From IMG/VR virus record IMGVR_UViG_3300036398_002324: DNA of 64,000 nt, one strand, 5' to 3'. This DNA comes from a virus. Position 1 is the first letter of the stretch, and every line of letters begins with the position of its first letter. A model generated the notes under the pieces. That model saw nothing but the letters and a program-made list of their open reading frames with translations, ran no database searches and had not been told where the DNA came from. A program made the translations under genes and the position numbers. Positions 27,469 to 52,866 of the stretch are shown piece after piece.

Positions 27469-28986
27469 ATGTCAAAAGTGGTGACATTTGTTATACCAAG
27501 CAGTGCTGCACAAGCATATCAGGAACTCTCTAATAAGTATTCTGCTATTGAACCGCCAACATGGGCATTGTTACTTGCTAACGCTGTTCGTGTTGATGGA
27601 TATAATCCTTGTATTTTAGATTTTGATGCTGAACCTACAAGTGTTGAACAAGCAGCAGAGAAAATTGCGGATACAAAAACTGATATAGCAGTCTTTGTTC
27701 TTTATGGACAAAATCCAAACTCAGGCACCACGATGATGATTGGTGCATCAAAACTAGCAAAGCAACTTAAAGCATCACATCCATCAATCAAAACAGTATT
27801 CATCGGCTCACATGCTTCTGCATTGCCATATGATGTTATTGGTTTACCTTATGTTGATTTCGTATTCATCAATGAGGGTGTTTATGGTCTGCTAGATTTG
27901 CTGCAAACAAACTATGTTGATGAACTAGACAAAGTTCGTGGTCTGGTATATAAGAAACATGGCTTTGCTGCGACGGGTGCTCCTGGTGAGATTGTTCAAA
28001 CGAAAGATATGGACAGAGTTATGCCAGGTTATGCATGGGATTTGCTACCAAAAGATAACAACTTATTAGACAAATACAGAGCGCATTATTGGCATTCATA
28101 TTTCAAAGACGAAGGTCGTACACCATTTGCTGCAATCTCAACATCACTGGGTTGTTCATTTGGTTGCAACTTCTGTATGATTAATATCGTCAATAGAACA
28201 TCATATCAACAAGGCACAGTATCATCCGATACTCGTGGTATGCGTTTCTGGTCACCAGAATTAATGTTGAAAGAATTTGAATATCTATGGGAAAATGGTG
28301 TACGCACAGTTCGTTTGACTGATGAGATGTTTTTTCTAAACAAAAAATATTATGTTCCTATTCTGCAAGGTCTGGTTGACCGTGGAATGAAGTTTAATTT
28401 CTGGGCATATGCACGTGTAGATTCCGTTCGAAAAGACCAACTAGAATTGTTCAAAGAAGCTGGAGTAAATTGGCTTGCACTTGGTATCGAAGCAGGTAAT
28501 CCACAAGTTCGTTTAGAAATTGATAAAGGTCGATTCAAGCAAGTTGATATTCGTGAAGTTGTACAAGACATTAAAGATGCTGGTATCAATGTGTTGGGCA
28601 ATTACATGTTTGGTTTTCCAGAAGATACACAAGAGACAATGCAAGAAACTTTAGACCTTGCACTTGAGTTAAACTGTGAACATGCAAACTTCTATGCAGC
28701 AATGGCATTACCTGGTAGTCCACTTTATATGGAAGCAGTTAATAATAAATGGGAATTACCACAGACGTTCGATGAGTTCGCATTTCTATCATATGACTGT
28801 AAACCACTCAGAACAAAAGCACTAACTGGTGCTGAAGTATTGAAGTTTCGTGATGATGCTTGGCACAAATACTTTTCACATGGACCATTCTTGAATCTTG
28901 TTGAAAACAAATTTGGAATTGATTCACGTAAAAATATTGAAGAGATGTCCAAGATTAGATTGAAAAGGAAAATTCTAGGTGACTAA
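27469..28986 (+). CDS. Cobalamin-binding radical SAM enzyme
   Basis: N-terminal B12-binding-like domain (EPP.W...GSHASALP...GEG-like); CSFGCNFC; DEMF, YARVD, GIEAG, GFPEDT. Confidence 0.88.
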   Translation: MSKVVTFVIPSSAAQAYQELSNKYSAIEPPTWALLLANAVRVDGYNPCILDFDAEPTSVEQAAEKIADTKTDIAVFVLYGQNPNSGTTMMIGASKLAKQLKASHPSIKTVFIGSHASALPYDVIGLPYVDFVFINEGVYGLLDLLQTNYVDELDKVRGLVYKKHGFAATGAPGEIVQTKDMDRVMPGYAWDLLPKDNNLLDKYRAHYWHSYFKDEGRTPFAAISTSLGCSFGCNFCMINIVNRTSYQQGTVSSDTRGMRFWSPELMLKEFEYLWENGVRTVRLTDEMFFLNKKYYVPILQGLVDRGMKFNFWAYARVDSVRKDQLELFKEAGVNWLALGIEAGNPQVRLEIDKGRFKQVDIREVVQDIKDAGINVLGNYMFGFPEDTQETMQETLDLALELNCEHANFYAAMALPGSPLYMEAVNNKWELPQTFDEFAFLSYDCKPLRTKALTGAEVLKFRDDAWHKYFSHGPFLNLVENKFGIDSRKNIEEMSKIRLKRKILGD

Positions 28987-29578
28987 ACAAGAACTTATCG
29001 CATTCGAAGATAAGATTGCTGATCATTTCAACAATGGCAGAATTCGTGCGCCAATTCATCTGTACTATGGCAATGAGAATGAAATGATAAAAATCTTCAA
29101 AAACATTCGGTCAATAGATTGGGTGTTTTGTTCATGGCGTTCACATTATCAATGTCTGTTGAAAGGTGTGCCGCCAGATGTTTTAGAAAAAGATATTTTG
29201 GAAGGCAAGTCAATCTCACTTTGTTATCCACAATACAACATATACTCATCAGCAATTGTTGGTGGCAATATTCCTATTGCAGTAGGAACTGCGATGGCAA
29301 TGAAACGTAAAAAGATTGACACGAAGGTGTATTGCTTTGTTGGTGACATGACATCAGAATCTGGCATCTTCATGGAAAACTTCAAGTATTCTATTCAACA
29401 TGAACTGCCTATCAAATTTATTGTTGAAGATAATGGCAAATCTGTTTGTACTGATACAAATAAAACTTGGGGTGTATCAGAATCATCATATAAGAATTGT
29501 GAACACGAATCCATTTATTATTATGAATATGAAACAAAATATCCACATGCTGGTGCGGGAATGAGGGTACAATTTTGA
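28979..29578 (+). CDS. TPP-dependent E1-alpha-like subunit (short)
   Basis: HLYYGNE, WRSH, SAIVGGNIPIAVG, TPP motif GDM...EDN. Confidence 0.85.
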   Translation: MTKQELIAFEDKIADHFNNGRIRAPIHLYYGNENEMIKIFKNIRSIDWVFCSWRSHYQCLLKGVPPDVLEKDILEGKSISLCYPQYNIYSSAIVGGNIPIAVGTAMAMKRKKIDTKVYCFVGDMTSESGIFMENFKYSIQHELPIKFIVEDNGKSVCTDTNKTWGVSESSYKNCEHESIYYYEYETKYPHAGAGMRVQF

Positions 29579-30105
29579 AATACTTTGACGAACTAAAACG
29601 TGCAATGAACATGCTTGCTGGTGATCCAAGAGTTATCTTTATGGGTCAAGCAGTAGAGTATGCTGGTACAGCAATGTCTAACACACTAAAAGATGTTCCT
29701 AAAGAACAATTATTAGAAATGCCTGTGTTTGAAGACACACAAATGGGCATGACATTGGGTTTAGCACTTGCTGGTTATATTCCTGTGAGCATTTATCCAC
29801 GTTGGAATTTTCTAGTGTGTGCAACAAATCAGTTAGTCAATCACGTAGATAAAATTACGATGATGTCCGATTACAAGCCAAGAATTATCATAAGAACTGG
29901 TATTGGTTCTGAAAGACCTTTACATCCACAACATCAACATGTCGGTGATTATACAGATGCCTATAGACTTCTTTGCCCAAATACTGATATAATTAAGTTA
30001 GAAGAACCAAGACATGTCTACGATGCATACTGCACAGCATATCTGAGAAGAGATGGAAAATCTACCATATTGGTTGAGTATGGTGATTATTATAATGAAA
30101 AATGA
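29575..30105 (+). CDS. TPP-dependent E1-beta/transketolase pyrimidine-binding subunit (no C-terminal domain)
   Basis: VIFMGQ, EMPVFED..MG...GLAL.G, NQLVN, HPQHQH. Confidence 0.82.
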   Translation: MKYFDELKRAMNMLAGDPRVIFMGQAVEYAGTAMSNTLKDVPKEQLLEMPVFEDTQMGMTLGLALAGYIPVSIYPRWNFLVCATNQLVNHVDKITMMSDYKPRIIIRTGIGSERPLHPQHQHVGDYTDAYRLLCPNTDIIKLEEPRHVYDAYCTAYLRRDGKSTILVEYGDYYNEK

Positions 30106-31085
30106 TCATATCTAAAACACCGTATCGTTTATCTTTATTTGGAGGTGGCACAGATTATCCAGCATGGTATGAAAAACATCCATCTAGAGTAATCTCTGCT
30201 GCAATGGCTCATTATTGCTATATAAGTTTAAAGAAGTTACCGCCTTATTTTGAACATGCTAATCGGATTATCTATTCAAAGATAGAAACTGTTGATGACA
30301 TATCTGAGATAGAACATCCTTCAGTAAGGGAGTGTTTAAAGTATTATGATATATCTAATGGTATTTCTATTAGCCACGACGGCGACCTTCCTGCTCGTTC
30401 TGGCATTGGATCATCTTCTGCATTTACTGTTGGACTGGTAAATGCCATCACAACTTATCTAGGCAAATCAAATCATGCATATGACCTTGCTAGAGCAGCA
30501 ATAGATATTGAACAGAATCGAATTGGTGAATCTGTCGGTGTACAAGATCAGATTGCAGCCGCTTATGGTGGTTTAAATGTTATTGAACTTTCAAAAGACA
30601 AAATAAAAGTTTTATCTTTAGATGTATCTTTTGAATACGAAAACAATTTAGAAAAGCATATTATGTTAGGCTTTTCTGGTATTGATAGATTTTCTGATGT
30701 TCATGCTAAACAACAAGTTGAAAATATTAAATCAGGCAAATCGGAAAAATATTTGGATGCTATATCCAGAGTATCAAATTGTGCATATGATTTAATGATT
30801 GATGAACAACCGATGAAAGAGTTAGGCGACCTTCTTGTTGAACAGTGGTACTACAAAAGAGAACTAACAAATGATGTAACGAGTGAGTATATAGATACAA
30901 TATATAACAAAGCAATAAAAGCTGGTGCATATGGTGGTAAATTGATGGGTGCTGGTGGTGGTGGTTTCTTTATGTTTCTTGCTCCGCCTGATGCACATGA
31001 AAAAATTAAACTAGCAATACCTGAAATCAACGTGTGGGTGCCATTTAAATTTGACTATAGTGGCAGCACAATTATCATGGAGTGA
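30102..31085 (+). CDS. GHMP sugar kinase, HddA (heptose-7-phosphate kinase)-like
   Basis: SKTPYRLSLFGGGTD, DLPARSGIGSSSA, G.QDQ, GKLMGAGGGGF. Confidence 0.85.
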   Translation: MIISKTPYRLSLFGGGTDYPAWYEKHPSRVISAAMAHYCYISLKKLPPYFEHANRIIYSKIETVDDISEIEHPSVRECLKYYDISNGISISHDGDLPARSGIGSSSAFTVGLVNAITTYLGKSNHAYDLARAAIDIEQNRIGESVGVQDQIAAAYGGLNVIELSKDKIKVLSLDVSFEYENNLEKHIMLGFSGIDRFSDVHAKQQVENIKSGKSEKYLDAISRVSNCAYDLMIDEQPMKELGDLLVEQWYYKRELTNDVTSEYIDTIYNKAIKAGAYGGKLMGAGGGGFFMFLAPPDAHEKIKLAIPEINVWVPFKFDYSGSTIIME

Positions 31086-32263
31086 CGATGAAGTATCCTT
31101 TAATGTCTGATAATATTACAAGAGAAGATTTAGATTTGGTAATAGAACATCTCAAAAAAGATAATCCAAAACTTACGAATGGACCAGAGTGTCGTGCTTT
31201 TGAAGAAGCATGGTCTAAATGGTTGGGTGTAAAGTATTCAGTCTTTGTCAATTCCGGTGCTTCTGCAAATCTATTGTCAATGACAATGTTGAAGATTAAA
31301 CATCCAGAAGGTGGTGAAGTGATTGTGCCGCCATTTACATGGGTATCTGATATCGCTTCTATTCTTCAATGCGGATTCACTCCAGTATTTGTTGACATCG
31401 ACTTAGACACTCTTGGTATGAATGAGGATGGCATACTAAATGCTATCACAGATAAGACACGTGCTGTCTTTATAACTTACGCTCAAGGCTTCGACTGCTT
31501 ATCTGACAGAGTATTAGAAGTTCTTCGTCATCGTAACATTCCTTTGATTGAAGATGTGTGTGAATCGCATGGTGCAACACATAATCAAAAGCTTTTGGGT
31601 AGCTTTGGTTGGATGTCAAACTTCTCATTTTATTTTGCACACCACATGTCAACGATTGAAGGTGGTATGGTTTGTACAAATGATGAAGAAGTTTATCACA
31701 CAGTTCGTATGCTCCGTTCACACGGTATGGTACGTGAATGCGGTAGTTCAAAGATGTCTGAAAAATATAAAGCAGAAAATCCAGAATTAAATCCAGATTT
31801 CATTTTCGCATATCCAGCATACAACATGCGTAACAATGAAATTGGCGGTATACTTGGTCAAAATCAGTTGAAATATCTGGATGAAAATGTTAAACTTAGA
31901 AATAAAAATCTATTTCACTTCTTATCAAAGCTAGACCAGAAAAAGTATAAGGTAGATTTTAGATTGATAGGATGTAGTAACTATGCGTTTAACATAGTGC
32001 TACAGCATGACTATTGTACAGAATATTTTGTAAATCGTTTGATGGGTAAAATGCGTGATGAAGGAATTGAGTTTCGTCGTGGCTCTGCTGGTGGTGGAAA
32101 TCAATTGAGACAACCATATTTGAAAAATATTGTACCAGAAAATCATTATAGGAACTTTCCGAATACTGACCACATGCATTTTTATTCGTTCTACATTGGA
32201 AATTATCCAACACTAAAAGAATCAGCAATCAATGAAATCGTAAACATTTTAAATAGGGTATAA
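31082..32263 (+). CDS. DegT/DnrJ-family PLP enzyme, ColD-like NDP-4-keto-6-deoxysugar 3-dehydratase
   Basis: VNSGASANL, EDVCESHG, FSFYFAHHMSTIEGG with His at the usual Schiff-base Lys position. Confidence 0.82.
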   Translation: MTMKYPLMSDNITREDLDLVIEHLKKDNPKLTNGPECRAFEEAWSKWLGVKYSVFVNSGASANLLSMTMLKIKHPEGGEVIVPPFTWVSDIASILQCGFTPVFVDIDLDTLGMNEDGILNAITDKTRAVFITYAQGFDCLSDRVLEVLRHRNIPLIEDVCESHGATHNQKLLGSFGWMSNFSFYFAHHMSTIEGGMVCTNDEEVYHTVRMLRSHGMVRECGSSKMSEKYKAENPELNPDFIFAYPAYNMRNNEIGGILGQNQLKYLDENVKLRNKNLFHFLSKLDQKKYKVDFRLIGCSNYAFNIVLQHDYCTEYFVNRLMGKMRDEGIEFRRGSAGGGNQLRQPYLKNIVPENHYRNFPNTDHMHFYSFYIGNYPTLKESAINEIVNILNRV

Positions 32264-32264
32264 T

Positions 32265-33206
32265 ATGGGACAGTGGCGAGTATTAGTAACTGGTGGAGCT
32301 GGTTACATTGGTTGTATTCTAGTAGAATACTTATTGCAAATAGGATGTAAAGTTACTGTATTGGATAACTTTATGTTTCGTCAAAGTGGATTGAATCATC
32401 TTTGTGAAAATAAAGACTTGACCATCGTGAATGGTGATATTCGTAATCCAGCACATATGGCACAACTGCTGAAAGAAGCAGATATTATTATTCCTCTTGC
32501 TGCACTTGTTGGCGCACCATTGTGTAACAAAGATGTTGTTGGTGCAGACACAACAAATAAAGATGCAATGTTCTGGATGCTAAAGAATGTATCAAATGAA
32601 CAGCGCATCATTATGCCTACAACAAATTCTGCTTATGGTACCGGTGATGAAAATAACTTCTGTACAGAAGATTCTCCACTACGTCCTATTTCAAAGTATG
32701 CGGTCGATAAAGTTGCAGTAGAAAAAGAATTAATGCAGCGTGAAAATTCAATCAGCTATCGTCTTGCTACAGTATTCGGTATGTCACCGCGTATGCGTAC
32801 AGATTTGTTGGTTAATGACTTGACATATCGTGCAGTGAATGATGGTTATACTATCATCTTTGAGGGTCACTTCAAACGTAATTATGTCCATGTGCGTGAT
32901 GTATGTGAAGCATTCTTACACGCAATTCATCAGTTTGAAAATATGCGTGGTAATATTTACAACGTAGGTCTTTCTTCAGCAAACGTTTCTAAATTAGAGT
33001 TGTGTGAAATTATTAAGAAACATATTCCAAGCTTTACAATCGTAGAAGGCGATATCAAGAAAGACCCTGACCAACGTAACTATATCGTTTCAAATGAAAA
33101 GTTAGAAGCAACTGGATGGATGCCATATCATACACTTGATGATGGTATTGTTGAACTTATTAAGGGATACACATACATCAAGAACAATATTCATGGTAAT
33201 GTATAA
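32265..33206 (+). CDS. NAD-dependent sugar epimerase/reductase (extended SDR)
   Basis: VTGGAGYIG, YAVDK (YxxxK), RLATVFG. Confidence 0.88.
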   Translation: MGQWRVLVTGGAGYIGCILVEYLLQIGCKVTVLDNFMFRQSGLNHLCENKDLTIVNGDIRNPAHMAQLLKEADIIIPLAALVGAPLCNKDVVGADTTNKDAMFWMLKNVSNEQRIIMPTTNSAYGTGDENNFCTEDSPLRPISKYAVDKVAVEKELMQRENSISYRLATVFGMSPRMRTDLLVNDLTYRAVNDGYTIIFEGHFKRNYVHVRDVCEAFLHAIHQFENMRGNIYNVGLSSANVSKLELCEIIKKHIPSFTIVEGDIKKDPDQRNYIVSNEKLEATGWMPYHTLDDGIVELIKGYTYIKNNIHGNV

Positions 33207-33742
33207 TGGCAACCCATTACGTAAACAACGCTGATTTTTTAGCAGCATTAATAAAATATAAAGAAGATTGCGTCATATCGGAGAGAGATGGAACACCAGA
33301 ACCAAAAGTTCCAAATTACATTGGCGAATGTTTTCTAAAAATTGCGGAACATCTATCAAGAAAACCAAACTTCATATCATATACTTATCGTGATGAGATG
33401 ATATCTGATGGTGTTGAAAATTGTTTGATGTACTTCCGCAATTTTGACCCGGCAAAATCAACAAATCCATTTGCTTATTTTACACAGATAATATATTATG
33501 CATTCTTACGTAGAATTATGCGTGAGAAGAAACAGTTATATGTTAAGTATAAAGCAACACAACAATTTGGATTACTTGATGAGGGAGAGATGTTTGAAGA
33601 TGAAGATGGAAACATGAGGCAATTTGAATTGTATGATAACATCTCAGAATTTATCCATAATTTTGAAGAGAATAAGAAAAAGAAAAGCGTAAAGAAAGCA
33701 ACTGGACTTGAACAATTTTTGGATGATGAGACTGAAAAATGA
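33206..33742 (+). CDS. gp55: Late sigma factor gp55
   Basis: HYVNN, YIGECFLKIA.HLS.KPNF, NPFAYFTQIIYYAFLRRI. Confidence 0.95.
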   Translation: MATHYVNNADFLAALIKYKEDCVISERDGTPEPKVPNYIGECFLKIAEHLSRKPNFISYTYRDEMISDGVENCLMYFRNFDPAKSTNPFAYFTQIIYYAFLRRIMREKKQLYVKYKATQQFGLLDEGEMFEDEDGNMRQFELYDNISEFIHNFEENKKKKSVKKATGLEQFLDDETEK

Positions 33743-34179
33743 AAGTAGGATTTAATTGCAGTACATTTGATTTGTTTCATGCAGGTCATGTAACGATGTT
33801 GAGAGAAGAAAAAAGATATTGTGACTATCTTATTGTTGCAATTCAAGTTGACCCAACCGTTGATAGACCAGACACAAAAAATAAACCCATAATGTCCATT
33901 TATGAACGTTATGTCTGTGTCTCAGCATGTAAATATGTTGATGAAGTGATTGTTTATCACACCGAAGAAGACTTGTTGAATCTTTTGAAGACACAGCACA
34001 TCGATATCCGTTTTCTTGGTGATGAGTATAAAACAAAAGACTTCACTGGAAAACAGTGGTGTTTAGATCATGGCATAGAATTACATTATCATAATAGAGA
34101 ACACCCATACAGCAGTTCTTCATTACGAAAACGCATTTACGAAGCTGAACTAGCTAAACTGGAAAATAAATCTAAATGA
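33739..34179 (+). CDS. Cytidylyltransferase (TagD-like)
   Basis: FDLFHAGHV (HxGH) and R.H.YSSSSLR motifs. Confidence 0.85.
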   Translation: MKVGFNCSTFDLFHAGHVTMLREEKRYCDYLIVAIQVDPTVDRPDTKNKPIMSIYERYVCVSACKYVDEVIVYHTEEDLLNLLKTQHIDIRFLGDEYKTKDFTGKQWCLDHGIELHYHNREHPYSSSSLRKRIYEAELAKLENKSK

Positions 34180-35246: not shown

Positions 35247-36952
35247 TACTATTCAAAAAATTACGTTGGAAAAATCTACTATCTACCGGCAACCACTTCA
35301 CAGAAATTTTACTGAATGGTAACTCCAACACACTGATTGTCGGCTCAAATGGCTCAGGTAAATCCACGATGCTAGATGCATTGTGTTTTGTGCTATTTGG
35401 CAAACCATTCCGTAATGTCAACAAACCGAATCTTCTAAATAGTATTAACGGCAGAGATTGTGTCGTTGAGATTGAGTTTTCTATTGGTAATAAAGAATAT
35501 AAGATTATTCGTGGTATAAAACCAAATACGTTTGAGATATACCAAGACCAAGTTTTGCTGAACCAAGACGCGGCTGTAAGAGATTATCAAGACTATCTAG
35601 AGAAGTTTATTCTCAAACTAAACTATAAGTCTTTTACACAGATTGTAATCCTTGGTTCAGCATCCTTTACTCCTTTCATGCAGCTATCTGCTGCTGACCG
35701 TCGAGCAATCATAGAAGATTTGCTTGACATTCAAATCTTCTCCACAATGAATAGTCTTGTTAAAGAGAGACTTTCAAATAATAAAGACTTGATGATTCAA
35801 AAGAAGAATGAAATTGAATTATACAAGCAACGTTATGATTTGAAGAAAGAGCATCTAGACAAACTCAATCAAAACAATGAAGAGAAGATAAAAGAATATG
35901 AGAAAGAGATACAGAGTAGTAGAGAAAGCATTGTCTCCTTATCAAATGAAATTGACTTGTTGGGCAAAACCATCACCGAGTTGGATGCCCACGTGGCAAA
36001 AGCACCTGAAGTTGAGAAGAAGATTGCTGCGTTTAGAAAGATTGAGTCGCAAATTGAAAGCAAGATATCCAAAGTGGAACATGATAGACATTTCTACGAA
36101 CACAATCCTGATTGCCCAACCTGTAGGCAAGCCATTACCCTGGAGTTTAAAGAGGGGCAGCTTTCAGAACTTCAATCGAAAGAGCAAGAACTGTCTGGTG
36201 GTATAGGAGAACTGAGAACAAAAATTACTGAACAAGAAAATATTCTAACAGTTATACGTGATGATGAAAAGAAATTAAATACATTAAAGATTGAAGTTGC
36301 TACCAAGAAGACTGGTATGCAGGGCTTGCAAACTGCAATCACCAAATTAGAGAAACAAATTAAAGAATTACAAACGACTGAGAAAGAAGATTCAAATCAA
36401 AACGAATTAGTTACAATTCAGAATCAGATCAAACAAGCACAGAGTGAATTGAAACAGTTAATTGATGATAAAGCATATTATGATGTTGCTTCAACATTAC
36501 TCAAAGATACTGGTATCAAAACCAATATTGTAAAACAGTATTTACCAGTCATCAATAAACTGGTTAACAAATATCTGTCTAGCATGGACTTCTTTGTCAA
36601 CTTTAATTTGGATGAATCGTTTAAAGAAACAATCAAGTCAAGACATCGTGATGATTTCAGCTATCATAATTTCTCAGAGGGTGAGAAACAACGTATTGAT
36701 ATGTCATTGATGTTGACATGGAGAGCGATTGCTAAGTTAAAAAATTCCATAAATACGAACTTGTTGATACTTGATGAAGTGTTTGATTCAAGCCTTGATG
36801 TTGGTGGTACAGAAGACTTGATGAAAATATTGCATACACTAAATGACGCTAATCTTTTTGTTATAAGTCATAAGGGTGATATACTGCAAGATAAATTTGC
36901 TAATACAATTCGATTTGAGAAATCAAAGAACTTTTCGAGGATAATGAAATGA
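35243..36952 (+). CDS. gp46: Recombination ATPase gp46 (Rad50/SbcC-like)
   Basis: GSNGSGKST, CPTC hook, FSEGEK, LILDEVFDSSLD. Confidence 0.95.
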   Translation: MILFKKLRWKNLLSTGNHFTEILLNGNSNTLIVGSNGSGKSTMLDALCFVLFGKPFRNVNKPNLLNSINGRDCVVEIEFSIGNKEYKIIRGIKPNTFEIYQDQVLLNQDAAVRDYQDYLEKFILKLNYKSFTQIVILGSASFTPFMQLSAADRRAIIEDLLDIQIFSTMNSLVKERLSNNKDLMIQKKNEIELYKQRYDLKKEHLDKLNQNNEEKIKEYEKEIQSSRESIVSLSNEIDLLGKTITELDAHVAKAPEVEKKIAAFRKIESQIESKISKVEHDRHFYEHNPDCPTCRQAITLEFKEGQLSELQSKEQELSGGIGELRTKITEQENILTVIRDDEKKLNTLKIEVATKKTGMQGLQTAITKLEKQIKELQTTEKEDSNQNELVTIQNQIKQAQSELKQLIDDKAYYDVASTLLKDTGIKTNIVKQYLPVINKLVNKYLSSMDFFVNFNLDESFKETIKSRHRDDFSYHNFSEGEKQRIDMSLMLTWRAIAKLKNSINTNLLILDEVFDSSLDVGGTEDLMKILHTLNDANLFVISHKGDILQDKFANTIRFEKSKNFSRIMK

Positions 36953-37527
36953 GTGAAATTCTAACAATTGATACATCTGCTGGTCTACAAACAGCCGAAA
37001 GAATTGATCCTCTTCGTGTATACGGAGAAGATTTTTCTATGCTTGGTCAAAAAATACCAGAATATACTGGTACGTTTCCAGCACCAGCATTAGTTACACT
37101 GAGTAAACGATTGAAGATGACGATGAAGCTTTATGCTGGTCTTGGTCTTTCAGCAAATCAGTGTGGTGTTGCTGAAAGAATGTTTGTAATTGGAACAGAA
37201 GAGTTTCAACTAGTATGCATCAATCCAAAAGTTACCGCAGCTGGTCCATTTGTAAAAGATAAAGAAGGTTGTCTTTCTTTTCCTGCATTGTTTTTGAATG
37301 TTGACCGTCCATCTTGGATTGAAGCAGAGTTTTTGGATGAAAACGGTGAAACAAAACAAGTGAGATTAGAAGGTCTTTCTGCACGTTGTTTCCTACATGA
37401 ACTTGACCACCTTGATGGAATAAGATATACTGAGTATGTTAAACCACTTGCATTAAAAATGGCAAGACAGAAAGCTAATAAGATGGTAAAGAAAATTATT
37501 AGAGGAAAGAAAAATGAAAAAGTCTGA
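36949..37527 (+). CDS. def: Peptide deformylase
   Basis: GLGLSANQ, EGCLS, HELDH motifs. Confidence 0.92.
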   Translation: MSEILTIDTSAGLQTAERIDPLRVYGEDFSMLGQKIPEYTGTFPAPALVTLSKRLKMTMKLYAGLGLSANQCGVAERMFVIGTEEFQLVCINPKVTAAGPFVKDKEGCLSFPALFLNVDRPSWIEAEFLDENGETKQVRLEGLSARCFLHELDHLDGIRYTEYVKPLALKMARQKANKMVKKIIRGKKNEKV

Positions 37528-37864
37528 GATTCAAGAAACTGGCACATATGAAAATTGTATGGAGTTGCTTACTGATGAATATCAACCACCAACTCTAAAT
37601 CGTTTTTTTGGTGAGAGTGATGATGACAATGAAGGCGTTGATGTTCAAAATGCCGAATGGCAAAAGCATTGGGTTGGTATGCCAATGTTTGAACAGAATG
37701 ATAAGAAAACATATAAAACAATCTATCTTCATTTCCGAAACAAAGAAGATTATGAAGCGTTTGCAAAATTGGTGGACCAAAATCTTACAGAGAAAACAAA
37801 ATCAATCTGGTATCCAAAACTTGAAAGAGATGAAAACTCTTTGAAGAGATGGATTGAGGCATGA
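37514..37864 (+). CDS. Small hypothetical protein of the type found beside phage DNA glycosyltransferases
   Basis: W.GMP.F.Q...HF....D...F..L..Q.LT.KTKSIWYP; internal TLNRFF. Confidence 0.6.
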   Translation: MKKSEIQETGTYENCMELLTDEYQPPTLNRFFGESDDDNEGVDVQNAEWQKHWVGMPMFEQNDKKTYKTIYLHFRNKEDYEAFAKLVDQNLTEKTKSIWYPKLERDENSLKRWIEA

Positions 37865-38661
37865 GTCAAGTAGATTTTCTTAAAGAAAAGCCTCAAGTAT
37901 TGTTTGAGTATTTTCTCAAAGATTATGGCAGTTTGTTTTCTATAGATGCCGAAGAGTGTCGAGCAATTCGAAAGACTGATAAAATCTTTCAAGAATTGTC
38001 GAACAAATGGTATGATGATTTAGCAAATACAGATACCGGAAACATCTATGAGGTTTACAATCATGACTACTATTTTATTGATGTGTTCAATTGTTTTGTC
38101 TCATATAGTCGAGACTACGTTAAAAGAATTTTAAAGTCATCACACTTTGGAGAACTGAAAGAACCTAAAGTTATTGTTGATATTGGTTGTGGTATAAGTT
38201 ACAGCACAAGTTTATTGAAACAGTTATTTCCTGAAGCCAAAGTTTATGCAATCAATCTAAGAGATACTAAACAATGGAAGTTCTGTGAAATAATGGCAGA
38301 AAGAATGAACTTCAATCTAGTTGGCTCAATTACTGAGATTGGCGAACCTGTTGATATATTATTTGCTTCAGAATACTTTGAACACATTTATAATCCGATT
38401 GAACACGTTGACGATATTATTGGTACTCTAAAACCGAAACATATGATAATTGCAAACTCATTCAACACATGGGGGATGGGACACTTTACACAATATGATG
38501 TTTATGGTACAATGGTGAGTCAAGAAAAAATAAGCAAGATGTTTAATCAGCATTTGAAAAGAAGACACTATGATAACATCAAATGTGGAATATGGAATAA
38601 CAAACCTTTGATATGGAAAAGAAATGACGAATCCGACACATCCAGTTTATATCGTTTCTAA
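37861..38661 (+). CDS. Class I SAM-dependent methyltransferase
   Basis: IVDIGCG motif I; FASEYFEH. Confidence 0.75.
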   Translation: MSQVDFLKEKPQVLFEYFLKDYGSLFSIDAEECRAIRKTDKIFQELSNKWYDDLANTDTGNIYEVYNHDYYFIDVFNCFVSYSRDYVKRILKSSHFGELKEPKVIVDIGCGISYSTSLLKQLFPEAKVYAINLRDTKQWKFCEIMAERMNFNLVGSITEIGEPVDILFASEYFEHIYNPIEHVDDIIGTLKPKHMIIANSFNTWGMGHFTQYDVYGTMVSQEKISKMFNQHLKRRHYDNIKCGIWNNKPLIWKRNDESDTSSLYRF

Positions 38662-39520
38662 GGGTCGTTCTGATACAATGATTACGTCAAAATCATTGTC
38701 CAGAATGAAAGTACCTCATTATATTGTGATTGAACCACAAGATGAAGAAGCGTATGATAAAGCATTAGATAAATTTAATATTCGTGATTATGTCACGTTG
38801 ATTGTTGCACCATTCAGTAATCATGGTGATGGCCCTGGTCGTGCAAGAAACTTTGCATGGGATCATTCTATTTCTATTGGTGCAGATAAACATTGGGTAC
38901 TTGATGATAATATTTCTGATTTCTATAGACTGCATCAAAACTATCGTATCCGTGTAGAGTCTGGTGTTATCTTCAAAGCAGCAGAAGATTTTGTTGACCG
39001 ATTTGAGAATGTACCAATCTCTGGTTTTCAGTATCGATTCTTTATTGCACCAAATCAAAGTTATCCACCTTATGTAAAGAATACTCGAATCTATTCTACA
39101 CTGTTGATAGATAACAATTGTAAACATCGTTGGCGTGGTCGTTACAATGAAGACACTGATATCTGTCTGCGTGTTTTGAAAGATGGTGATTGTACTATTC
39201 AGTTCAATGCATTCTTGCAAGGTAAAGCAGCAACACAAACTGTTAAGGGTGGTAACACTGAAGAGTTTTATCACAAAGAAGGTATTGAAAAGAATGTTTG
39301 GATTGATGGTGTGAATGCTGAAGGTACGAGAAACAAATCTGAGATGCTGGTAAGAATGCATCCAGATGTTGCACGAATGGTCTGGCGATACAAACGCTGG
39401 CATCATTACGTAGACTATTCACCATTCAAGAAGAATGAACTGCGTTACAAAAAAGACATCATTTTACCAAAAGAACCAAACGAATATGGTATGAAACTTG
39501 TAACGAATTTCAAAGCTTGA
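38624..39520 (+). CDS. TET-associated/GREB1-like GT-A glycosyltransferase (putative DNA-base modifying)
   Basis: PVYIVSKGR, ARNFAWDH, HWVLDDNI, RGRYNEDTD, GGNT, RWHHYVDY. Confidence 0.7.
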   Translation: MTNPTHPVYIVSKGRSDTMITSKSLSRMKVPHYIVIEPQDEEAYDKALDKFNIRDYVTLIVAPFSNHGDGPGRARNFAWDHSISIGADKHWVLDDNISDFYRLHQNYRIRVESGVIFKAAEDFVDRFENVPISGFQYRFFIAPNQSYPPYVKNTRIYSTLLIDNNCKHRWRGRYNEDTDICLRVLKDGDCTIQFNAFLQGKAATQTVKGGNTEEFYHKEGIEKNVWIDGVNAEGTRNKSEMLVRMHPDVARMVWRYKRWHHYVDYSPFKKNELRYKKDIILPKEPNEYGMKLVTNFKA

Positions 39521-39545
39521 CAATCCATTTATCTCCGATTATACT
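39517..39545 (+). promoter_or_regulatory. sigma70 early promoter
   Basis: TTGACA-17-TATACT. Confidence 0.8.
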
Positions 39546-39573
39546 AGATGTATAGTGATGATTGGAGATAAAG

Positions 39574-39762
39574 ATGTCAACTTTACAAGATGTTGTTGAT
39601 GAAAATGAAATTGGTTATCAATATGCTATTCTTGATATCAAAAATGCAATAAGTAATTACGGCATAGATATAGTTCTGGAAGCAATTGATTCTTATGTAA
39701 ATGATAACGTCAATTTAGACTTGACAAACATTTATATCCCTGATACTATTACATTTCAATAG
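39574..39762 (+). CDS. Small hypothetical early protein
   Basis: GGAG RBS then ATG at 39574; downstream of the promoter. Confidence 0.55.
   Translation: MSTLQDVVDENEIGYQYAILDIKNAISNYGIDIVLEAIDSYVNDNVNLDLTNIYIPDTITFQ
39721..39749 (+). promoter_or_regulatory. sigma70 early promoter
   Basis: TTGACA-17-TACTAT with extended TG. Confidence 0.7.
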
Positions 39763-39777
39763 TAAACGAGGTTTCAA

Positions 39778-42132
39778 ATGAACAACATTCAAAATCAAAA
39801 GTCTGGTCTTGCCAAACTGATGGCAACCGAGAATCTCACTGTTCAACATGCCAAAACTTATACGGCATCATTTGATCCTAAAAATCGTATTCTAACATGT
39901 CCTATCTGGACAGAAATGTCTGGCGATCTTTATGACTTGCTAATGGGTCATGAAGTTGGTCACGCTATCGATACACCTGCCGATGGTTGGCATGGTGCTG
40001 TTCATGACCGCGGTCGTAGTTACAAGGGCTTTCTCAATGTGGTTGAAGATGCACGAATTGAGAAGCGCCAAAAACGCCGTTATCCTGGTCTACGTAAATC
40101 TTTTATCAACGGCTTCAGTGAACTAATGAACCGTGACTTCTTTGGTCTAAAGGGTCGTGATATCAATTCAATGTCATTCATTGACCGACTGAACTTATAC
40201 ACAAAGTCCAGTTATACAATGGACATTCAGTTCAATGACATTGAAAAAGATTTTGTTGAACGTGTTCAGGCTTGTGAATCTTTTGAAGAAGCCTTGAAAT
40301 TGACGGATGAAATTTGGGACTATTCAAAAGAAGAACAACAACAAACCGAAATGCCTCAAGATGATTTTGGCTATGAGTTTGATGAAGATGGTGAAGAATC
40401 TGAAGTCGGTTCTGGTGACGGTGATGCCGAGACTGATGGCAAAGGTAAACAAAAAGCAAAAACAAAAGCGAACGGTCAAGATGGTGACCAAGATTCTGAT
40501 GATTCATCTGACGGTGATGGTGAAGAATCCGATGAAGATGGTGAAGGTACAAAATCCGCAAAGTCTGACGGTGAATCTGAAGATGATGAATCTTTCGAAG
40601 AATCTGAACAGGGTAATGCTATCAATCGTTATAAAGAATCGAAAAGCCTTTCAGAGGGCTTAGATGACTTTGAACCTCGGTGTGAAACTGATGAAAACTT
40701 TCGTGCAAATGAATCTAGTCTTATTGCAAAAAATTCACGTGAATATGTTTATGTAAACATTCCTGCGCCGAATCTGAAAAACATTGTCACGCCAGCAAAA
40801 CGTGTTCAGGAACTTTTGACTGAAGATTTTTCCAAACAACGGCAAGATTATCAGCAAGTTGCCAATAATTTGTATGCAGATTTTCGTAAGAAAAATGAAC
40901 GGTATATCTCTCTTCTGGCAAAAGAATTTGAGATGCGTAAGGCTGCACAACGGTTTGCAAAAGCAAAAACTGCGTCCACTGGTGATATTGATATCAGCCG
41001 TGTATTCAAATATCAGATTGATGATAATATCTTCAAAAAAATCATGCGTGTTCCTAAGGGTAAGTCGCACGGTTTGGTTCTGTTACTTGATAAGTCTGGT
41101 TCAATGTCCGAAAATCTTACGGCATCATTAGAACAAATTCTGATTCTGGCATTGTTCTGCCGTAAAGTAAGCATTCCGTTCAGTGCATATGGTTTTGGTA
41201 ATGCAGAGAATGTCCGACACATGGATTTTCCTTCGGACCCATCGTTTGATGAGTACGGTAATGTAATTCTGAAAAGCTACAGCACTGGTTGCTTTTCTGA
41301 AAAAGAAGGTGACTTGCAACTTTCTAGTGTGTACCTGCGTGAGATGATTAATTCGAAAATGAGTAATTCTGAATTTTCGAATGCCGTGAAAAACATTCTG
41401 TGCGTTATGGATGCGTTTCAATACAGATATTCGTATGGTAAATTCTTTCAGCGTCCTAAGAGTGAAAGTTTATCAAACACACCATTGACTGAGGCTTTGA
41501 TTGCTTCTCAGCCAGTCATCAAAGAATTTCGCAAATTGAACAATCTTGATATTGTCAATCTGTGTGTGGTTCACGATGGCGATGCTGATACAACAACTAG
41601 CTATCATAATAATGGCACAAGAAATTATTATCGTGTGGGTTATCAGAATGTTTTTCTGTGCGACAAAAAAGAAAAACTGCAATTTGAATTGTCTGATGAT
41701 GAGAACGGTGCCAGAATTGCGGTATCAAAGTGGTTGACTAAAACCACTGGTGCTAAAATAATTGGTTTCTATCTTGCACCAGATTCACAAGTTAGAAATG
41801 TTATTCGCCGTCGGTTTGTGAATGATGAAGTTCTTGCTGCCGATGATAGTAACAAAAAATATACTTGGGAATGGAAGTGTGCTACTAATGAAGTTTATAG
41901 CAAGTATGCAAAAATCTTCCGTAAAAATAAGTATCTTGAATCCAAAAATGATGGCTACGAATCATTTTTCATCATTGCTGGTGGTAATGATTTGAATGTT
42001 GGTGATGACACGTTTGATGCACCCGATAAAGTTACCGCAACTAGTCTGTCAAAAGCATTTGGTAAGTTTACCAAAAATCGTCAAGTGAATCGGGTTCTGG
42101 TTTCACGATTCATTGGTATGATTGCTGCTTGA
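39778..42132 (+). CDS. CobT-like protein: HExxH peptidase-like domain, acidic linker, VWA domain
   Basis: HEVGHA...NVVEDARIE; D/E-rich linker; MIDAS DKSGS, TPL, HDGD. Confidence 0.8.
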   Translation: MNNIQNQKSGLAKLMATENLTVQHAKTYTASFDPKNRILTCPIWTEMSGDLYDLLMGHEVGHAIDTPADGWHGAVHDRGRSYKGFLNVVEDARIEKRQKRRYPGLRKSFINGFSELMNRDFFGLKGRDINSMSFIDRLNLYTKSSYTMDIQFNDIEKDFVERVQACESFEEALKLTDEIWDYSKEEQQQTEMPQDDFGYEFDEDGEESEVGSGDGDAETDGKGKQKAKTKANGQDGDQDSDDSSDGDGEESDEDGEGTKSAKSDGESEDDESFEESEQGNAINRYKESKSLSEGLDDFEPRCETDENFRANESSLIAKNSREYVYVNIPAPNLKNIVTPAKRVQELLTEDFSKQRQDYQQVANNLYADFRKKNERYISLLAKEFEMRKAAQRFAKAKTASTGDIDISRVFKYQIDDNIFKKIMRVPKGKSHGLVLLLDKSGSMSENLTASLEQILILALFCRKVSIPFSAYGFGNAENVRHMDFPSDPSFDEYGNVILKSYSTGCFSEKEGDLQLSSVYLREMINSKMSNSEFSNAVKNILCVMDAFQYRYSYGKFFQRPKSESLSNTPLTEALIASQPVIKEFRKLNNLDIVNLCVVHDGDADTTTSYHNNGTRNYYRVGYQNVFLCDKKEKLQFELSDDENGARIAVSKWLTKTTGAKIIGFYLAPDSQVRNVIRRRFVNDEVLAADDSNKKYTWEWKCATNEVYSKYAKIFRKNKYLESKNDGYESFFIIAGGNDLNVGDDTFDAPDKVTATSLSKAFGKFTKNRQVNRVLVSRFIGMIAA

Positions 42133-42157
42133 CAAAGTGTGGAACTTTCTTTATAAT
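42129..42157 (+). promoter_or_regulatory. Consensus sigma70 promoter
   Basis: TTGACA-17-TATAAT, perfect match. Confidence 0.88.
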
Positions 42158-42188
42158 GTAGTTTCTACTGTGATGAGGAGTTTATATT

Positions 42189-45007: not shown

Positions 45008-45685
45008 ATGAAACTCTCTGATAACACACTTACGTTGCTGAAGAATTTTGCAACAATCAATCAAGGTATTATGTTCAAAAAAGGTAAGACACTCCGTACA
45101 GTGTCTAGTCAAAAGAACGTAATGGCTGAAGCAACAATCAATGAAGAAATTCCTACAGACTTTGGTGTATTTGATTTGAACAATTTTCTCTCAGTTCTTT
45201 CTCTACACAAAGATGATCCAGTCCTAGACTTTCAAGACAATAATGTTTTGATTTCTGGTCTACAGGGTCGTAGTAAAATCAAGTATCGATTCTGTGCGCC
45301 ACATATGCTTGTTGCTGCACCAGATAAAGCAATTGCAATGCCTGAGCCAGAGATTTCTTTTACTCTGAATCAGGAAGATTTTGACTGGATTCTTAAAGCA
45401 GCGTCAGTTCTCTCTTCACCGTTCATTGCAATTGAATCTGATGGCTCAAAACTTTCTGTGACAACATTTGACCCACAGAATGATGCAGCACATACAGAAT
45501 CACTTGAGATTGCAACCAGCAACAAGAAGTTCAAGATGTTGTTTAAGGTTGAGAATCTTAAAATGATTTCTGGTGCTTATGATGTTAAGATTTCATCGAA
45601 AGGTATTTCAAACTTTAAACATAAAACATTGAATCTTCAATACTGGATTGCAACTGAAACTGGTTCAAAATACGAGGGTGAATAA
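45008..45685 (+). CDS. gp45: Sliding clamp gp45
   Basis: MKLS..TL..LKNFATINQGI; FGVFDLNNFL; YWIATE. Confidence 0.93.
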   Translation: MKLSDNTLTLLKNFATINQGIMFKKGKTLRTVSSQKNVMAEATINEEIPTDFGVFDLNNFLSVLSLHKDDPVLDFQDNNVLISGLQGRSKIKYRFCAPHMLVAAPDKAIAMPEPEISFTLNQEDFDWILKAASVLSSPFIAIESDGSKLSVTTFDPQNDAAHTESLEIATSNKKFKMLFKVENLKMISGAYDVKISSKGISNFKHKTLNLQYWIATETGSKYEGE

Positions 45686-50323: not shown

Positions 50324-52866
50324 TGTCAAAATATTACACGAATGTTTGTGTCCACAACAATCACATATTGTTTCGTGGTGTAAATAACGGTCGGAGAGTA
50401 AAGAGCAAAGTCAAATACTCTCCGACTTTGTTTTTGAAGTCTAATAAACCGTCCAAATGGAATTCATTATTCAATGAACCATTGGAGCCAATGACCTTTG
50501 ATACTATTAGGGAGGCACGTGATTTTGTCAAACGTTATGAAGATGTTTCAAACTTTCAAATCTTTGGCAATACAAGGTATGAATACGCCTTTATTGCTGA
50601 CAATTTTAGAGGTAACATTGATTGGGATATTTCTGATTTATCTATCGCTTTCATAGATATCGAAGTTGGTTCTGAAAATGGATTTCCTGACCCATACAAA
50701 GCAACAGAACCAATCACTGCAATTGGTATTCATCAGTTAAATGGTGGTACTACAGTCTATGGTTGTGGAACTTATAAAAATAATCGTGATGATGTTGACT
50801 ACATTTTATGTGAAGATGAAATTGACCTTTGTGAAAAGTTTCTTGCTGATTGGACAAGCAATTGCCCTGATGTTCTTACTGGTTGGAATATCAAGTTCTT
50901 TGATGTTCCTTATCTTATCAATCGTTTCAAACGTATACTTGGCGAAGATGATGTAAAGAAACTCTCTCCTTGGGAAATCATTTCCGACCGTGAGTTGACT
51001 TTCAAAGGTAAGAAACAAACCGCATATGAAATCGTTGGCGTTGCAGCACTTGATTATCTTGAGTTGTACCAATGGTATGCTCCTGGTGGTAAGAATGTTG
51101 AAAACTACAAACTTGAAACGATTGCAAGTAATGAGTTGGATGAAACTAAGTTGTCATATGATGAGTATGATAATCTTCATCAGCTATACAAGTTAGACTA
51201 TCAAAAGTTTATTGACTATAATATCAAAGACGTTCATCTTGTTCTTGCACTTGAAGATAAGTTGAAGTTGATTGAACTTGCACTTACTCTTGCATATGAT
51301 ACCAAATCAAACTTCGGCGATGTATTTGCACAAACAAGAATGTGGGATGCATTGATTTATAACTATCTGCTTGATAAACAAATCATCGTACCACCAAGAA
51401 GAGTTGTAAAAAAGAACGAAGCTTTTGAGGGTGCGTATGTCAAAGACCCGCAAGTTGGTTTGCATGATTATGTGGCATCGTTTGACTTGAACAGTCTGTA
51501 TCCACACCTAATCATGCAGTACAATATTAGTCCCGAAACGTTGATTGATAACTCAAACTATTCTCCGGATATGCGTAAGCTTTCATCTGAGGCTTCTGTA
51601 GATAGTTTGCTTGATAAAAGAGTAGACACATCGGTGCTAAAAGATGTGACGATTACTCCGAACGGACAATTCTTTCGTACAGATAAACAGGGCTTTCTTC
51701 CTAAGATGATGTCTGAGATGTATGATGACCGAAAGAAGTTCAAGAAAGAGATGCTGAAGGCTCAACAAGAATATGAGAATGAAACAGACAAGAAAAAGAG
51801 AAAAGAAATTGAAAAACTGATTGCACGTTATAACAATCTACAACTTGCAAAGAAAGTTTCATTGAACTCTGCTTATGGTATCATGGGTTCACAATACTTC
51901 CGTTTCTATGATTTGCGTATTGCTCTTGCTGTAACACAAACCGGTCAGCTATCGATTCGTTGGATTGAAAACAAGCTGAATGAGTATATGAATGATGTAC
52001 TCAAATCAAATAATGATTATGTAATTGCATCAGACACAGATTCGATTTATTTAAATCTTGGTCCTCTTGTAAAGAAAGTATATGGCGTAGATGGTAAAGT
52101 AACTTTGTCTGGTGCAAAAGCAATTGAATTCATGGACAAAGTTTGTGAGCAAAAAATTCAGCCATATATTGACAAGTCATATCAAGAACTTGCTGATTAC
52201 GTTCATGCGTATGAACAGAAGATGCAGATGAAACGTGAGGGTCTTTCAGACAAAGGTATCTGGACTGCAAAGAAAAGATACATTCTGAATGTGTATAACA
52301 ACGAAGGTGTTCAGTACGCCAAACCAAAACTCAAAGTTATGGGTCTTGAGATGGTAAAGTCATCAACACCAACTGTTGTGCGTGACAAGATGTATAAGCT
52401 GATTGATTTGGTAGTCAACACAGATGAAGAAACAGTTCAACAATTTATTGCCGACTTCAGAGAAGAGTTTAAAACATTACCTGTAGAAGATGTATCTTTT
52501 CCTCGTGGATGCAATGGTCTGTCTGAATATTCTGATTCCGTTACAATATATAAAAAGGGAACACCAATTCATGTCAAGGGTGCGATACTATACAATCACT
52601 ATCTAAAACAGTATAAGCTTACCAACAAGTATCCATCTGTAAAAGAAGGTGAGAAGTTAAAGTTTACTTACTTGAAAACACCAAATCCAATCAGAGATAT
52701 GGTAATATCTTTCCCAACGAGATTGCCAAAAGAGTTTGACCTACAAGAATATATTGATTATGATATGCAGTTTGAAAAAACTTTTCTAGACCCAATCAAA
52801 TTGATTTTAAATTGTATTGATTGGAAAACAGAAAAGCAATCTACACTTGAAGACTTTTTCTCATGA
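50323..52866 (+). CDS. gp43: Family B DNA polymerase gp43
   Basis: DIEV exonuclease, SFDLNSLYPH, KVSLNSAYG, SDTDS, KKRY; unsplit, no intein. Confidence 0.97.
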   Translation: MSKYYTNVCVHNNHILFRGVNNGRRVKSKVKYSPTLFLKSNKPSKWNSLFNEPLEPMTFDTIREARDFVKRYEDVSNFQIFGNTRYEYAFIADNFRGNIDWDISDLSIAFIDIEVGSENGFPDPYKATEPITAIGIHQLNGGTTVYGCGTYKNNRDDVDYILCEDEIDLCEKFLADWTSNCPDVLTGWNIKFFDVPYLINRFKRILGEDDVKKLSPWEIISDRELTFKGKKQTAYEIVGVAALDYLELYQWYAPGGKNVENYKLETIASNELDETKLSYDEYDNLHQLYKLDYQKFIDYNIKDVHLVLALEDKLKLIELALTLAYDTKSNFGDVFAQTRMWDALIYNYLLDKQIIVPPRRVVKKNEAFEGAYVKDPQVGLHDYVASFDLNSLYPHLIMQYNISPETLIDNSNYSPDMRKLSSEASVDSLLDKRVDTSVLKDVTITPNGQFFRTDKQGFLPKMMSEMYDDRKKFKKEMLKAQQEYENETDKKKRKEIEKLIARYNNLQLAKKVSLNSAYGIMGSQYFRFYDLRIALAVTQTGQLSIRWIENKLNEYMNDVLKSNNDYVIASDTDSIYLNLGPLVKKVYGVDGKVTLSGAKAIEFMDKVCEQKIQPYIDKSYQELADYVHAYEQKMQMKREGLSDKGIWTAKKRYILNVYNNEGVQYAKPKLKVMGLEMVKSSTPTVVRDKMYKLIDLVVNTDEETVQQFIADFREEFKTLPVEDVSFPRGCNGLSEYSDSVTIYKKGTPIHVKGAILYNHYLKQYKLTNKYPSVKEGEKLKFTYLKTPNPIRDMVISFPTRLPKEFDLQEYIDYDMQFEKTFLDPIKLILNCIDWKTEKQSTLEDFFS

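Follow-up and report, generated by a model that had tools for sequence, protein, structure and literature searches.

Here, we identify three adjacent genes of a marine T4-like myovirus as a conserved phage module for the likely decoration of DNA after replication. The genes lie in a 64-kb stretch of DNA (record IMGVR_UViG_3300036398_002324; hereafter, the window), the gp46 of which shares ~48% identity with its counterparts in Synechococcus phages and Methylophilales phage Melnitz. They encode a small protein (N-protein), a class I S-adenosylmethionine (SAM)-dependent methyltransferase and a TAGT-family glycosyltransferase. The three genes recur side by side in permuted orders, and the N-protein corresponds to a domain that is fused to TAGT in other phages. 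We lean toward the reading that TAGT and the methyltransferase act on newly replicated DNA while tethered to the sliding clamp, holding this somewhat more probable than the converse.

Composition and conservation of the module

Several lines of evidence firmly support the assignment of the 298-residue protein, on sequence grounds, to the TAGT family, an identity already proposed in a preliminary description of this DNA. First, it matches PF20691 with 150.2 bits (cut-off 27.5; 9.5e-44) over profile positions 2 to 205 of 205, and phrog_842 at 2.1e-46. Second, K13, R15, D94, D95, N96, N175, D177, G209 and G210, which do not vary when 21 diverse TAGTs are aligned, all lie within its four motifs YIVSKGR (residues 9 to 15), LDDNI (93 to 97), RYNED (173 to 177) and GGNT (209 to 212). 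Third, its R...DDN...NED...GGN pattern fits the R..DDD..EDY/F pattern of base-J glucosyltransferase (JGT)-like GT-A DNA glycosyltransferases (bioRxiv 10.1101/2023.12.21.572611). The GT-A fold itself is taken from work on the family (PMC13216743). The closest cultured relatives, which are 52% identical, belong to Aeromonas T4-like phages. In a tblastn search of 50,697 phage records, 26 records matched, with none from T-even phages at E ≤ 1e-5, and no sequence in the PDB matched. The T2/T6 beta-glucosyl-HMC-alpha-glucosyltransferase (HMC, hydroxymethylcytosine) is a TAGT member that acts on DNA (PMC13216743, PMC13390438). Orthology to this enzyme is not supported, given the lack of a T-even match and of a ThyA-fold gene in the window; the name that RefSeq gives to the homologues denotes the family only.

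The 116-residue N-protein matched no Pfam family and no PHROG family. Its conserved C-terminal part, the N-domain (residues 49 to 114), aligns with the N-terminal extension of the fused TAGT proteins of phages Aeh1 and PTm1 (BLASTP, 5e-13 and 1e-11, respectively), and the match falls inside the TAGT gene in 15 of the 15 phage records matched. An exhaustive search of 1.8e9 cluster representatives returned 2273 relatives, among which the N-domain stands alone, lies N-terminal to TAGT (metagenomic fusions P0083, P0100, P0111 and P0152), is duplicated in tandem or lies C-terminal to ParB_N (L076 and L083, confirmed with Pfam). Because the domain is fused to the TAGT N terminus in other phages, the N-protein is, as far as these alignments tell, a TAGT accessory domain made as a polypeptide of its own, and the methyltransferase gene separates the two halves. 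Thus, what was initially described as an adaptor is not a generic one but a detached N-terminal domain of TAGT enzymes (still fused in Aeromonas and Tenacibaculum phages), with a clamp-type peptide on its variable N-terminal arm. This arm also carries the motif E-[ST]-x-E-Y-[DE]-N-[CF]-[LIM]; among 32 orthologues, which are 31 to 55% identical to the window protein, Y12 is conserved in 30, E8 in 26 and N14 in 25. The same motif recurs in the tandem-domain relatives P0085, P0090 and P0102. As for the fold of the N-protein, Foldseek found no match in the PDB, the ESM Atlas returned unnamed viral clusters only, and a profile search of PDB sequences gave only weak UPF3 RNA recognition motif-like matches (E 0.08 to 0.2), too little to assign a fold. 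Directly behind the fused N::TAGT gene of Aeh1 lies a stand-alone extra N-domain of 66 residues, Aeh1p092 (L001, 6903-7103).

Judging from its predicted structure, the 266-residue protein is a class I SAM methyltransferase that is nearest in fold to natural-product O-methyltransferases. The AlphaFold2 (AF2) model is confident (mean predicted local distance difference test [pLDDT] 91.7) and Rossmann-like. The invariant residues include D107, G109, G111, E171, E174, H175 and H208, the first three of which belong to the DxGxGxG SAM-binding motif. The Pfam matches are borderline and above the cut-offs for Methyltransf_31 (27.5 versus 27) and Methyltransf_11 (21.6 versus 21.2), with Methyltransf_23 matching as well. 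Together, these observations bear out the class that had been proposed. The top structural neighbors are natural-product O-methyltransferases (Z 13.3 to 12.6), including TnmJ with Z 13.3 and a root-mean-square deviation of 3.8 over 212 residues. A DNA cytosine-5 methyltransferase was ruled out, PF00145 not being among the Pfam matches of the protein. Metagenomes contain 65 close relatives; none of the 50,697 phage records matched, and a cultured phage with the full trio was not found.

To what extent the three genes belong together can be read from 87 loci, which were fetched via the methyltransferase and in which N-domain (N), methyltransferase (M) and TAGT (G) genes were tabulated with purpose-built hidden Markov models. 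The three are adjacent and co-directional in 64 of them, in the orders NMG (42 loci), GNM (11), MNG (7) and NGM (4). Such a recurrence among independently fetched loci is far beyond chance. In addition, one protein (P0341) is a TAGT::methyltransferase fusion, and the three complete genomes with the methyltransferase all have TAGT. Recurrent adjacency, permuted orders and natural fusions argue for a single functional unit, as had been proposed. Aeh1 and PTm1 have the N-domain and TAGT without the methyltransferase; thus, N-domain and TAGT form the core, and the methyltransferase is an add-on that is rarely found without TAGT. Loci with the methyltransferase alone were considered as a sign of an independent role, an idea that we dropped because, in several of them, a divergent TAGT is encoded close by or at another place in the record. 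The module follows def in two T4-like clades and gp43, directly, in another; in small non-T4 phages, it lies beside terminase, DnaB or RecT-type genes.

A clamp-type peptide and the proposed targeting of the enzymes

In T4, gp43, gp55 and gp33 bind the gp45 clamp through hydrophobic-acidic C termini that are interchangeable, and an internal gp55 epitope functions in gp55-gp33 fusions (PMC2988020). The peptide PPTLNRFFGESDDD of the N-protein resembles the gp43 tail STLEDFFS and the gp55 tail GLEQFLDDETEK of the same phage, and relatives have gp43 tails that read TLEDFFC, SLESFFG, SLEDFFG or SLESFFA. By this likeness, TLNRFFGESDDD is a peptide of the hydrophobic-acidic type, and it is conserved among the 32 orthologues: L28 is present in 26 and F31 in 22, and 30 have a hydrophobic residue at position 32; an acidic run comes next, and the flanking linker varies freely. 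A loose clamp pattern occurs in 25 of the 32 sequences versus a mean of 2.8 and a maximum of 9 after shuffling. The N-protein of L022 has ATLEDFFD, and the second N copy in L051 ends in a C-terminal clamp-type peptide, TLENFFE. Similarly, Aeh1p092 ends in GLASLFDI and the gp43 of Aeh1 in ASLSDLFGDM.

Complex prediction for the gp45 trimer with residues 1 to 50 of the N-protein gave a score of 0.56, compared with 0.00 for the best of three controls, and this counts as weak support. Of 80 solved complexes, 58 attained this mark, as did 2 of 110 mismatched pairs; however, just 7 of the 80 scored ≤0.60, and both passing mismatches did so too. At least 40% of contacts are shared between runs, and the pLDDT of the partner is at least 41. 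The prediction used our own alignments, and the model may recall a likeness to the RB69 clamp-peptide complex, which has already been solved. Thus, in the earlier proposal that TLNRFF is a clamp peptide, the likeness to the gp43 and gp55 tails of the phage and the conservation in orthologues hold up well, whereas the predicted complex adds little. On balance, we consider it fairly probable that the N-protein binds gp45.

Phages outside the T4 group have other handles in the corresponding place, i.e., the fusion of the N-domain to ParB_N or preceding QxxLF-like peptides. The QxxLF-like pattern occurs in five of nine sequences versus a shuffle mean of 0.45; this pattern was picked after the data had been seen, and the enrichment is only suggestive. 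Both kinds of tether have precedents: a ParB-type partner activates phage thymine dioxygenases on double-stranded DNA (PMC13229309), and T4 alpha-glucosyltransferase binds gp45 (PMC13216743). The association of T4 alpha-glucosyltransferase with the sliding clamp was reported by Sommer (2004) and confirmed later (PMC13216743). In a small phage contig (L080), the methyltransferase gene and a divergent TAGT gene are separated by a gene (2907-3299) for a 130-residue protein that has no relation to the N-domain and starts with KQFSMFGDE, a sequence resembling a bacterial beta-clamp-binding pentapeptide.

We suggest the following scenario. TAGT, a GT-A enzyme related to base-J glucosyltransferase, would move a sugar from a nucleotide sugar onto a hydroxyl-bearing group of phage DNA. 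The conserved C-terminal part of the N-protein would dock on TAGT, as the natural fusions suggest, and its flexible N-terminal arm with TLNRFF-GESDDD would bind gp45, such that the enzyme follows the replication fork on the clamp. Where a T4-type clamp is lacking, an N-domain that is joined to ParB_N or bears QxxLF-like peptides would serve instead. The methyltransferase would be an optional third part, the most likely target of which is the transferred sugar or its nucleotide-sugar precursor, modified by O-methylation or methyl esterification.

Possible acceptor base, possible sugar donor and alternative readings

How the acceptor would arise divides the readings. In the preliminary description, TAGT was proposed to act on a hydroxymethyl-pyrimidine, and no hydroxymethylase or TET gene was noticed in the window. 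The second statement was confirmed, with none found in searches of the window; the first finds no backing, since searches of the window, and of complete relatives with methyltransferase and TAGT (two of which have the adjacent trio), detected no ThyA-fold enzyme, TET/JBP or C5-methyltransferase. The complete module-bearing relatives searched were G001 (149.6 kb, T4-like) and G007 (43.3 kb). Neither has a ThyA-fold enzyme, and this excludes dCMP and dUMP hydroxymethylases as well as 5-hydroxy-dCMP synthase there, all of which are ThyA homologues. Neither has a match to Tet_JBP (PF12851) over the cut-off, though no control genome matched over the cut-off either, and a C5 DNA methyltransferase (PF00145) is lacking in the records of five relatives including G001. 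G001 encodes ThyX. In Aeh1, which has a fused N::TAGT, only td was found, and this phage has been reported to lack gene 42 and probably to contain unmodified cytosine; phage 65 has also been reported to lack gene 42 (PMC2993671).

These negative results count against our proposal that DNA is the acceptor, and other points do so as well. The window covers only ~40% of the phage genome (probably about 160 kb, the size of a contig with an identical gp45) and offers a narrow view. The clamp-type peptide is internal (residues 27 to 38 of 116), unlike the C-terminal tails of gp43, gp55 and gp33, and the predicted complex with gp45 falls into the weak band of its calibration. The AF2 model of the N-protein has a mean pLDDT of 70 and is confident only for approximately residues 70 to 100. 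The list of structural neighbors of the methyltransferase is flat (Z 13.3 to 11.4) and also contains carboxyl, N- and C-methyltransferases, such that no substrate class stands out. Finally, the animal protein GREB1, the glycosyltransferase domain of which is related, is reported to modify a protein with O-GlcNAc (PMC7968844).

One alternative retains DNA as the substrate and a conventional acceptor, namely 5-hydroxymethyl-cytosine or -uracil, for which a gene outside the window would encode the hydroxymethylase or TET-like dioxygenase; TAGT would add the product of 27469-33206, and the methyltransferase would cap the sugar. We regard this as possible but doubtful. In its favor, characterized TAGT and JGT-like enzymes act on hydroxymethyl-pyrimidines or their glucosides, and GT-A enzymes associated with 5mYOX and with R..DDD..EDY/F motifs have been shown to glycosylate 5-hydroxymethylcytosine (bioRxiv 10.1101/2023.12.21.572611). 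Moreover, a dCMP deaminase gene is present in the window (49280-49768) and precedes the trio in many loci. One T4-like lineage (L003/L004) has a ThyA-family gene immediately ahead of the trio (L003, 4798-5679); however, its product looks like an ordinary dUMP-specific thymidylate synthase by sequence, with PCH and the Asn of PFNIASY both present. A 2-oxoglutarate (2OG)-Fe(II) oxygenase of family PF13640 is encoded by each of G001, G002 and G007, and the G007 copy has a faint Tet_JBP signal of 16 bits, which is below the cut-off. On the other hand, the PF13640 proteins are of the prolyl-hydroxylase type that is common in marine phages. As candidates for the missing hydroxylase they were set aside, homologues having been sought in vain in the window, Aeh1 and PTm1, and they remain only a lead. 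Thousands of phage 5mYOX-like contigs are reported to escape PF12851, and glycosyltransferases, ParBs, O-methyltransferases and epimerases co-occur with 5mYOX (PMC13229309). The lack of a ThyA-fold enzyme in the complete genomes G001 and G007 and the narrow distribution of the sugar genes described below argue against this alternative. Besides a split td, PTm1 has a second, divergent ThyA-family frame (L096, NC_049340.1 123231-123866; 37 bits, one in-frame TAA), which could be a base-modifying ThyA homologue.

Two other window genes bear on DNA modification without being tied to the module. A Mom-family protein (54294-55106, plus strand; PF25680, 4.7e-56) is encoded two genes downstream of gp43 and is a candidate for a second, independent DNA-modification enzyme of the phage Mu adenine N6-carbamoylmethylation type. 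Directly after gp43 lies a gene for a cupin/Asp-Arg-hydroxylase-like 2OG oxygenase (52863-53408, plus strand; PF05118, 8.5e-10; phrog_32420), followed by a gene for a 299-residue protein with a weak Tetraspanin match. As parts of the module, the oxygenase and the Mom protein were dropped; neither was found in the records of five relatives including the complete G001, searches that were empty everywhere and constitute weak evidence.

The donor sugar may come from a cluster of seven genes of the sugar-nucleotide type (27469-34179), and we consider its product a plausible donor for TAGT. The cluster encodes a B12-binding radical SAM enzyme, a split thiamine pyrophosphate enzyme (E1 alpha/beta-like), a GHMP kinase, a DegT aminotransferase, a short-chain dehydrogenase/reductase (SDR) epimerase/dehydratase and a cytidylyltransferase-like protein, with gp55 placed inside it ahead of the cytidylyltransferase-like gene. 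It is an insertion between uvsW and gp47 and is confined to the clade of the window. SDR epimerase/dehydratase genes adjoin the module in L079/L084 and in L083, and in the GNM lineage the module is followed by an unknown 309-residue gene, a UDP-glucose dehydrogenase gene and an SDR gene. The SDR enzymes beside modules are only 21 to 29% identical to each other and to the window copy, for which reason we rejected a single orthologous SDR partner. The link to SDR genes is thus recurrent but not orthologous, suggesting different donors in different lineages. Accordingly, the suggestion that TAGT uses the product of 27469-33206 stands in so far as SDR genes recur beside the module in several lineages, and is weakened by their lack of orthology and by the restriction of the cluster to one clade. 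Phages with arabinosyl-5-hydroxycytosine provide a precedent for nucleotide-sugar pathways beside DNA glycosyltransferases. Two further glycosyltransferase-like genes of the window could equally use the product of the cluster: an Anp1-like gene (43839-44654, plus strand; phrog_1574), which neighbors DUF3310 and gp45 in every T4-like locus seen, and a gene for a DUF4422 protein (48389-49240, plus strand).

A bolder version of our proposal is that, in marine T4-like and other phages, the module makes an undescribed DNA modification, a methylated (O-methyl or methyl-ester) glycosyl group, which is installed during replication by a pair of enzymes that a dedicated adaptor domain tethers to the gp45 clamp or, in other phages, to ParB or the host beta clamp, on an acceptor that comes neither from a ThyA-type hydroxymethylase nor from a recognizable TET enzyme. 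This would be a new route to a glycosylatable base, and we rate it as rather unlikely in this full form.

A further alternative, which we judge improbable, is that a protein at the replisome or on DNA, rather than a base, receives the sugar and the methyl group and that the clamp or ParB tether only delivers the enzymes to it. The activity of GREB1 on a protein and the lack of a base-hydroxylating enzyme in the complete relatives would fit, and a 2026 study found "solitary" TAGT homologues of undefined function in 288 of 753 phage genomes (PMC13216743). Yet all characterized phage members of the family act on DNA, the links to clamp and ParB_N and the place inside replication gene blocks are more simply explained by a DNA substrate, and a candidate target protein that co-varies with the module was not found in the loci compared. 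That the module is unrelated to DNA and modifies a small molecule, a host envelope glycan or a virion component, the TLNRFF likeness being due to chance, is very improbable: the methyltransferase is most like small-molecule O-methyltransferases, sugar-nucleotide genes and the two further glycosyltransferase genes are nearby and the motif is short, but the peptide is conserved in orthologues and matches two tails of the same genome, ParB_N fusions exist, two T4-like lineages have the module between def and gp45 or immediately behind gp43, and the control complexes in the gp45 prediction scored 0.00.

Gene layout, known systems and significance

In the window, the module closes a run of genes comprising an SDR epimerase gene, gp55 (phrog_234, 1.5e-61), a cytidylyltransferase-like gene, gp47, gp46 and def, with overlaps of 14 nucleotides between def and the N-protein gene, 4 between the N-protein and methyltransferase genes and 38 between the methyltransferase and TAGT genes. 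The open reading frames and all motifs previously quoted for this end of the gp55/47/46/def operon were recovered. The best sigma-70-like promoter match in the scanned region (32000-40500) comes immediately behind the TAGT stop codon, as would be expected if an operon ended there. Farther downstream (39778-43382, plus strand) are genes for a 784-residue protein (phrog_459 "peptidase"; weak cobalamin-biosynthesis-like match) and an AAA_5/CbbQ_C ATPase (phrog_249 "porphyrin biosynthesis"). This pair trails the module in most T4-like loci, and we take it to be the CobT/CobS-like pair common in marine myoviruses.

Table 1. Positions of the module genes, their motifs and related features in the window
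Feature	Position	Strand	Description
Sugar-nucleotide-type cluster	27469..34179	+	Seven genes; Pfam; possible donor pathway
gp55 late sigma factor tail GLEQFLDDETEK	33704..33739	+	Second comparator for the clamp motif; contains GLEQFLDD
N-protein gene (N)	37514..37864	+	116 residues; detached accessory domain of TAGT plus variable N-terminal arm
N-terminal motif E-[ST]-x-E-Y-[DE]-N-[CF]-[LIM]	37535..37561	+	Residues 8-16 of the N-protein
TLNRFF + GESDDD, hydrophobic-acidic peptide of the gp45 clamp-binding type	37592..37627	+	Residues 27-38 of the N-protein (TLNRFF, 27-32)
Conserved N-domain	37658..37855	+	Residues 49-114; W..W.GMP.F ... F....D...FA.L..Q.lt.KTKSiWyP
Class I SAM methyltransferase gene (M)	37861..38661	+	266 residues; O-methyltransferase-like; Pfam and AF2 model
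TAGT-family GT-A glycosyltransferase gene (G)	38624..39520	+	298 residues; PF20691, phrog_842
Sigma-70-like promoter match	39517..39545	+	TTGACA-17-TATACT, 11/12; consensus match only
gp45 sliding clamp	45008..45685	+	Pfam gp45-slide_C and DNA_PPF; proposed docking partner
gp43 DNA polymerase tail STLEDFFS	52840..52863	+	Comparator for the clamp motif

Glycosyl-hypermodification of phage DNA by TAGT is of a known kind; what is new here is a targeting domain that can be detached and that bears clamp or ParB handles, a class I methyltransferase in tight linkage with TAGT and the lack of any recognizable source of the usual acceptor. Like the window TAGT, the T2/T6 enzyme belongs to PF20691 and phrog_842 and is a GT-A enzyme encoded among the replication genes of T4-like phages. 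By contrast, it adds a second glucose to alpha-glucosyl-HMC and needs gene 42 and alpha-gt, neither of which was seen in the window, and no separate N-protein or methyltransferase partner has been described for it. The R..DD(D/N)..ED active-site pattern is shared with trypanosome base-J glucosyltransferase and the 5mYOX/TET-associated GT-A enzymes of Pyle et al., and the 5mYOX neighborhoods include genes for clamp, ParB-like, methyltransferase, epimerase and dCMP deaminase proteins (bioRxiv 10.1101/2023.12.21.572611). However, those pathways have a C5-methyltransferase and 5mYOX, or a ThyA homologue, none of which was found in the window or the complete relatives, and the parts of the preprint examined do not mention any invariable unit of three components that includes an N-domain of its own and a class I methyltransferase.

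With regard to tethering, T4 alpha-glucosyltransferase is also a DNA glycosyltransferase of a T4-type phage that is linked to gp45 (PMC13216743), but it is a GT-B enzyme (GT72) of unrelated sequence and fold that binds the clamp itself, whereas the window system has a separate accessory protein with a putative clamp peptide. The ParB-dependent phage thymine dioxygenases (PMC13229309) are likewise DNA-modifying enzymes that need a ParB-type partner on double-stranded DNA, as the ParB_N fusions of the N-domain in module relatives would parallel; these enzymes, however, are oxygenases rather than glycosyltransferases, and the window copy has a clamp-type peptide, not ParB. The closest cultured homologues are the fused N::TAGT proteins of Aeromonas phages Aeh1, 65 and phiAS5 and of Tenacibaculum phage PTm1, which are 45 to 53% identical over TAGT and have the N-domain in the same order. 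Unlike the module of the window, they are single polypeptides without a methyltransferase.

Hypermodification of phage DNA shapes resistance to restriction, CRISPR and DNA-glycosylase defenses and is a source of enzymes for epigenomics. The module described here gives the group of solitary TAGTs a three-part architecture, i.e., a catalytic glycosyltransferase, a detachable targeting domain and an optional methyltransferase, in which the DNA-loading handles of the targeting domain (gp45 peptide, ParB_N and QxxLF-like peptides) appear interchangeable. Because the fused form occurs in cultured Aeromonas and Tenacibaculum phages, the core of the module can be tested directly. If our reading is correct, the module would reveal how enzymes that modify DNA are linked to the replisome, and it predicts that the DNA of abundant marine phages carries methylated sugars.

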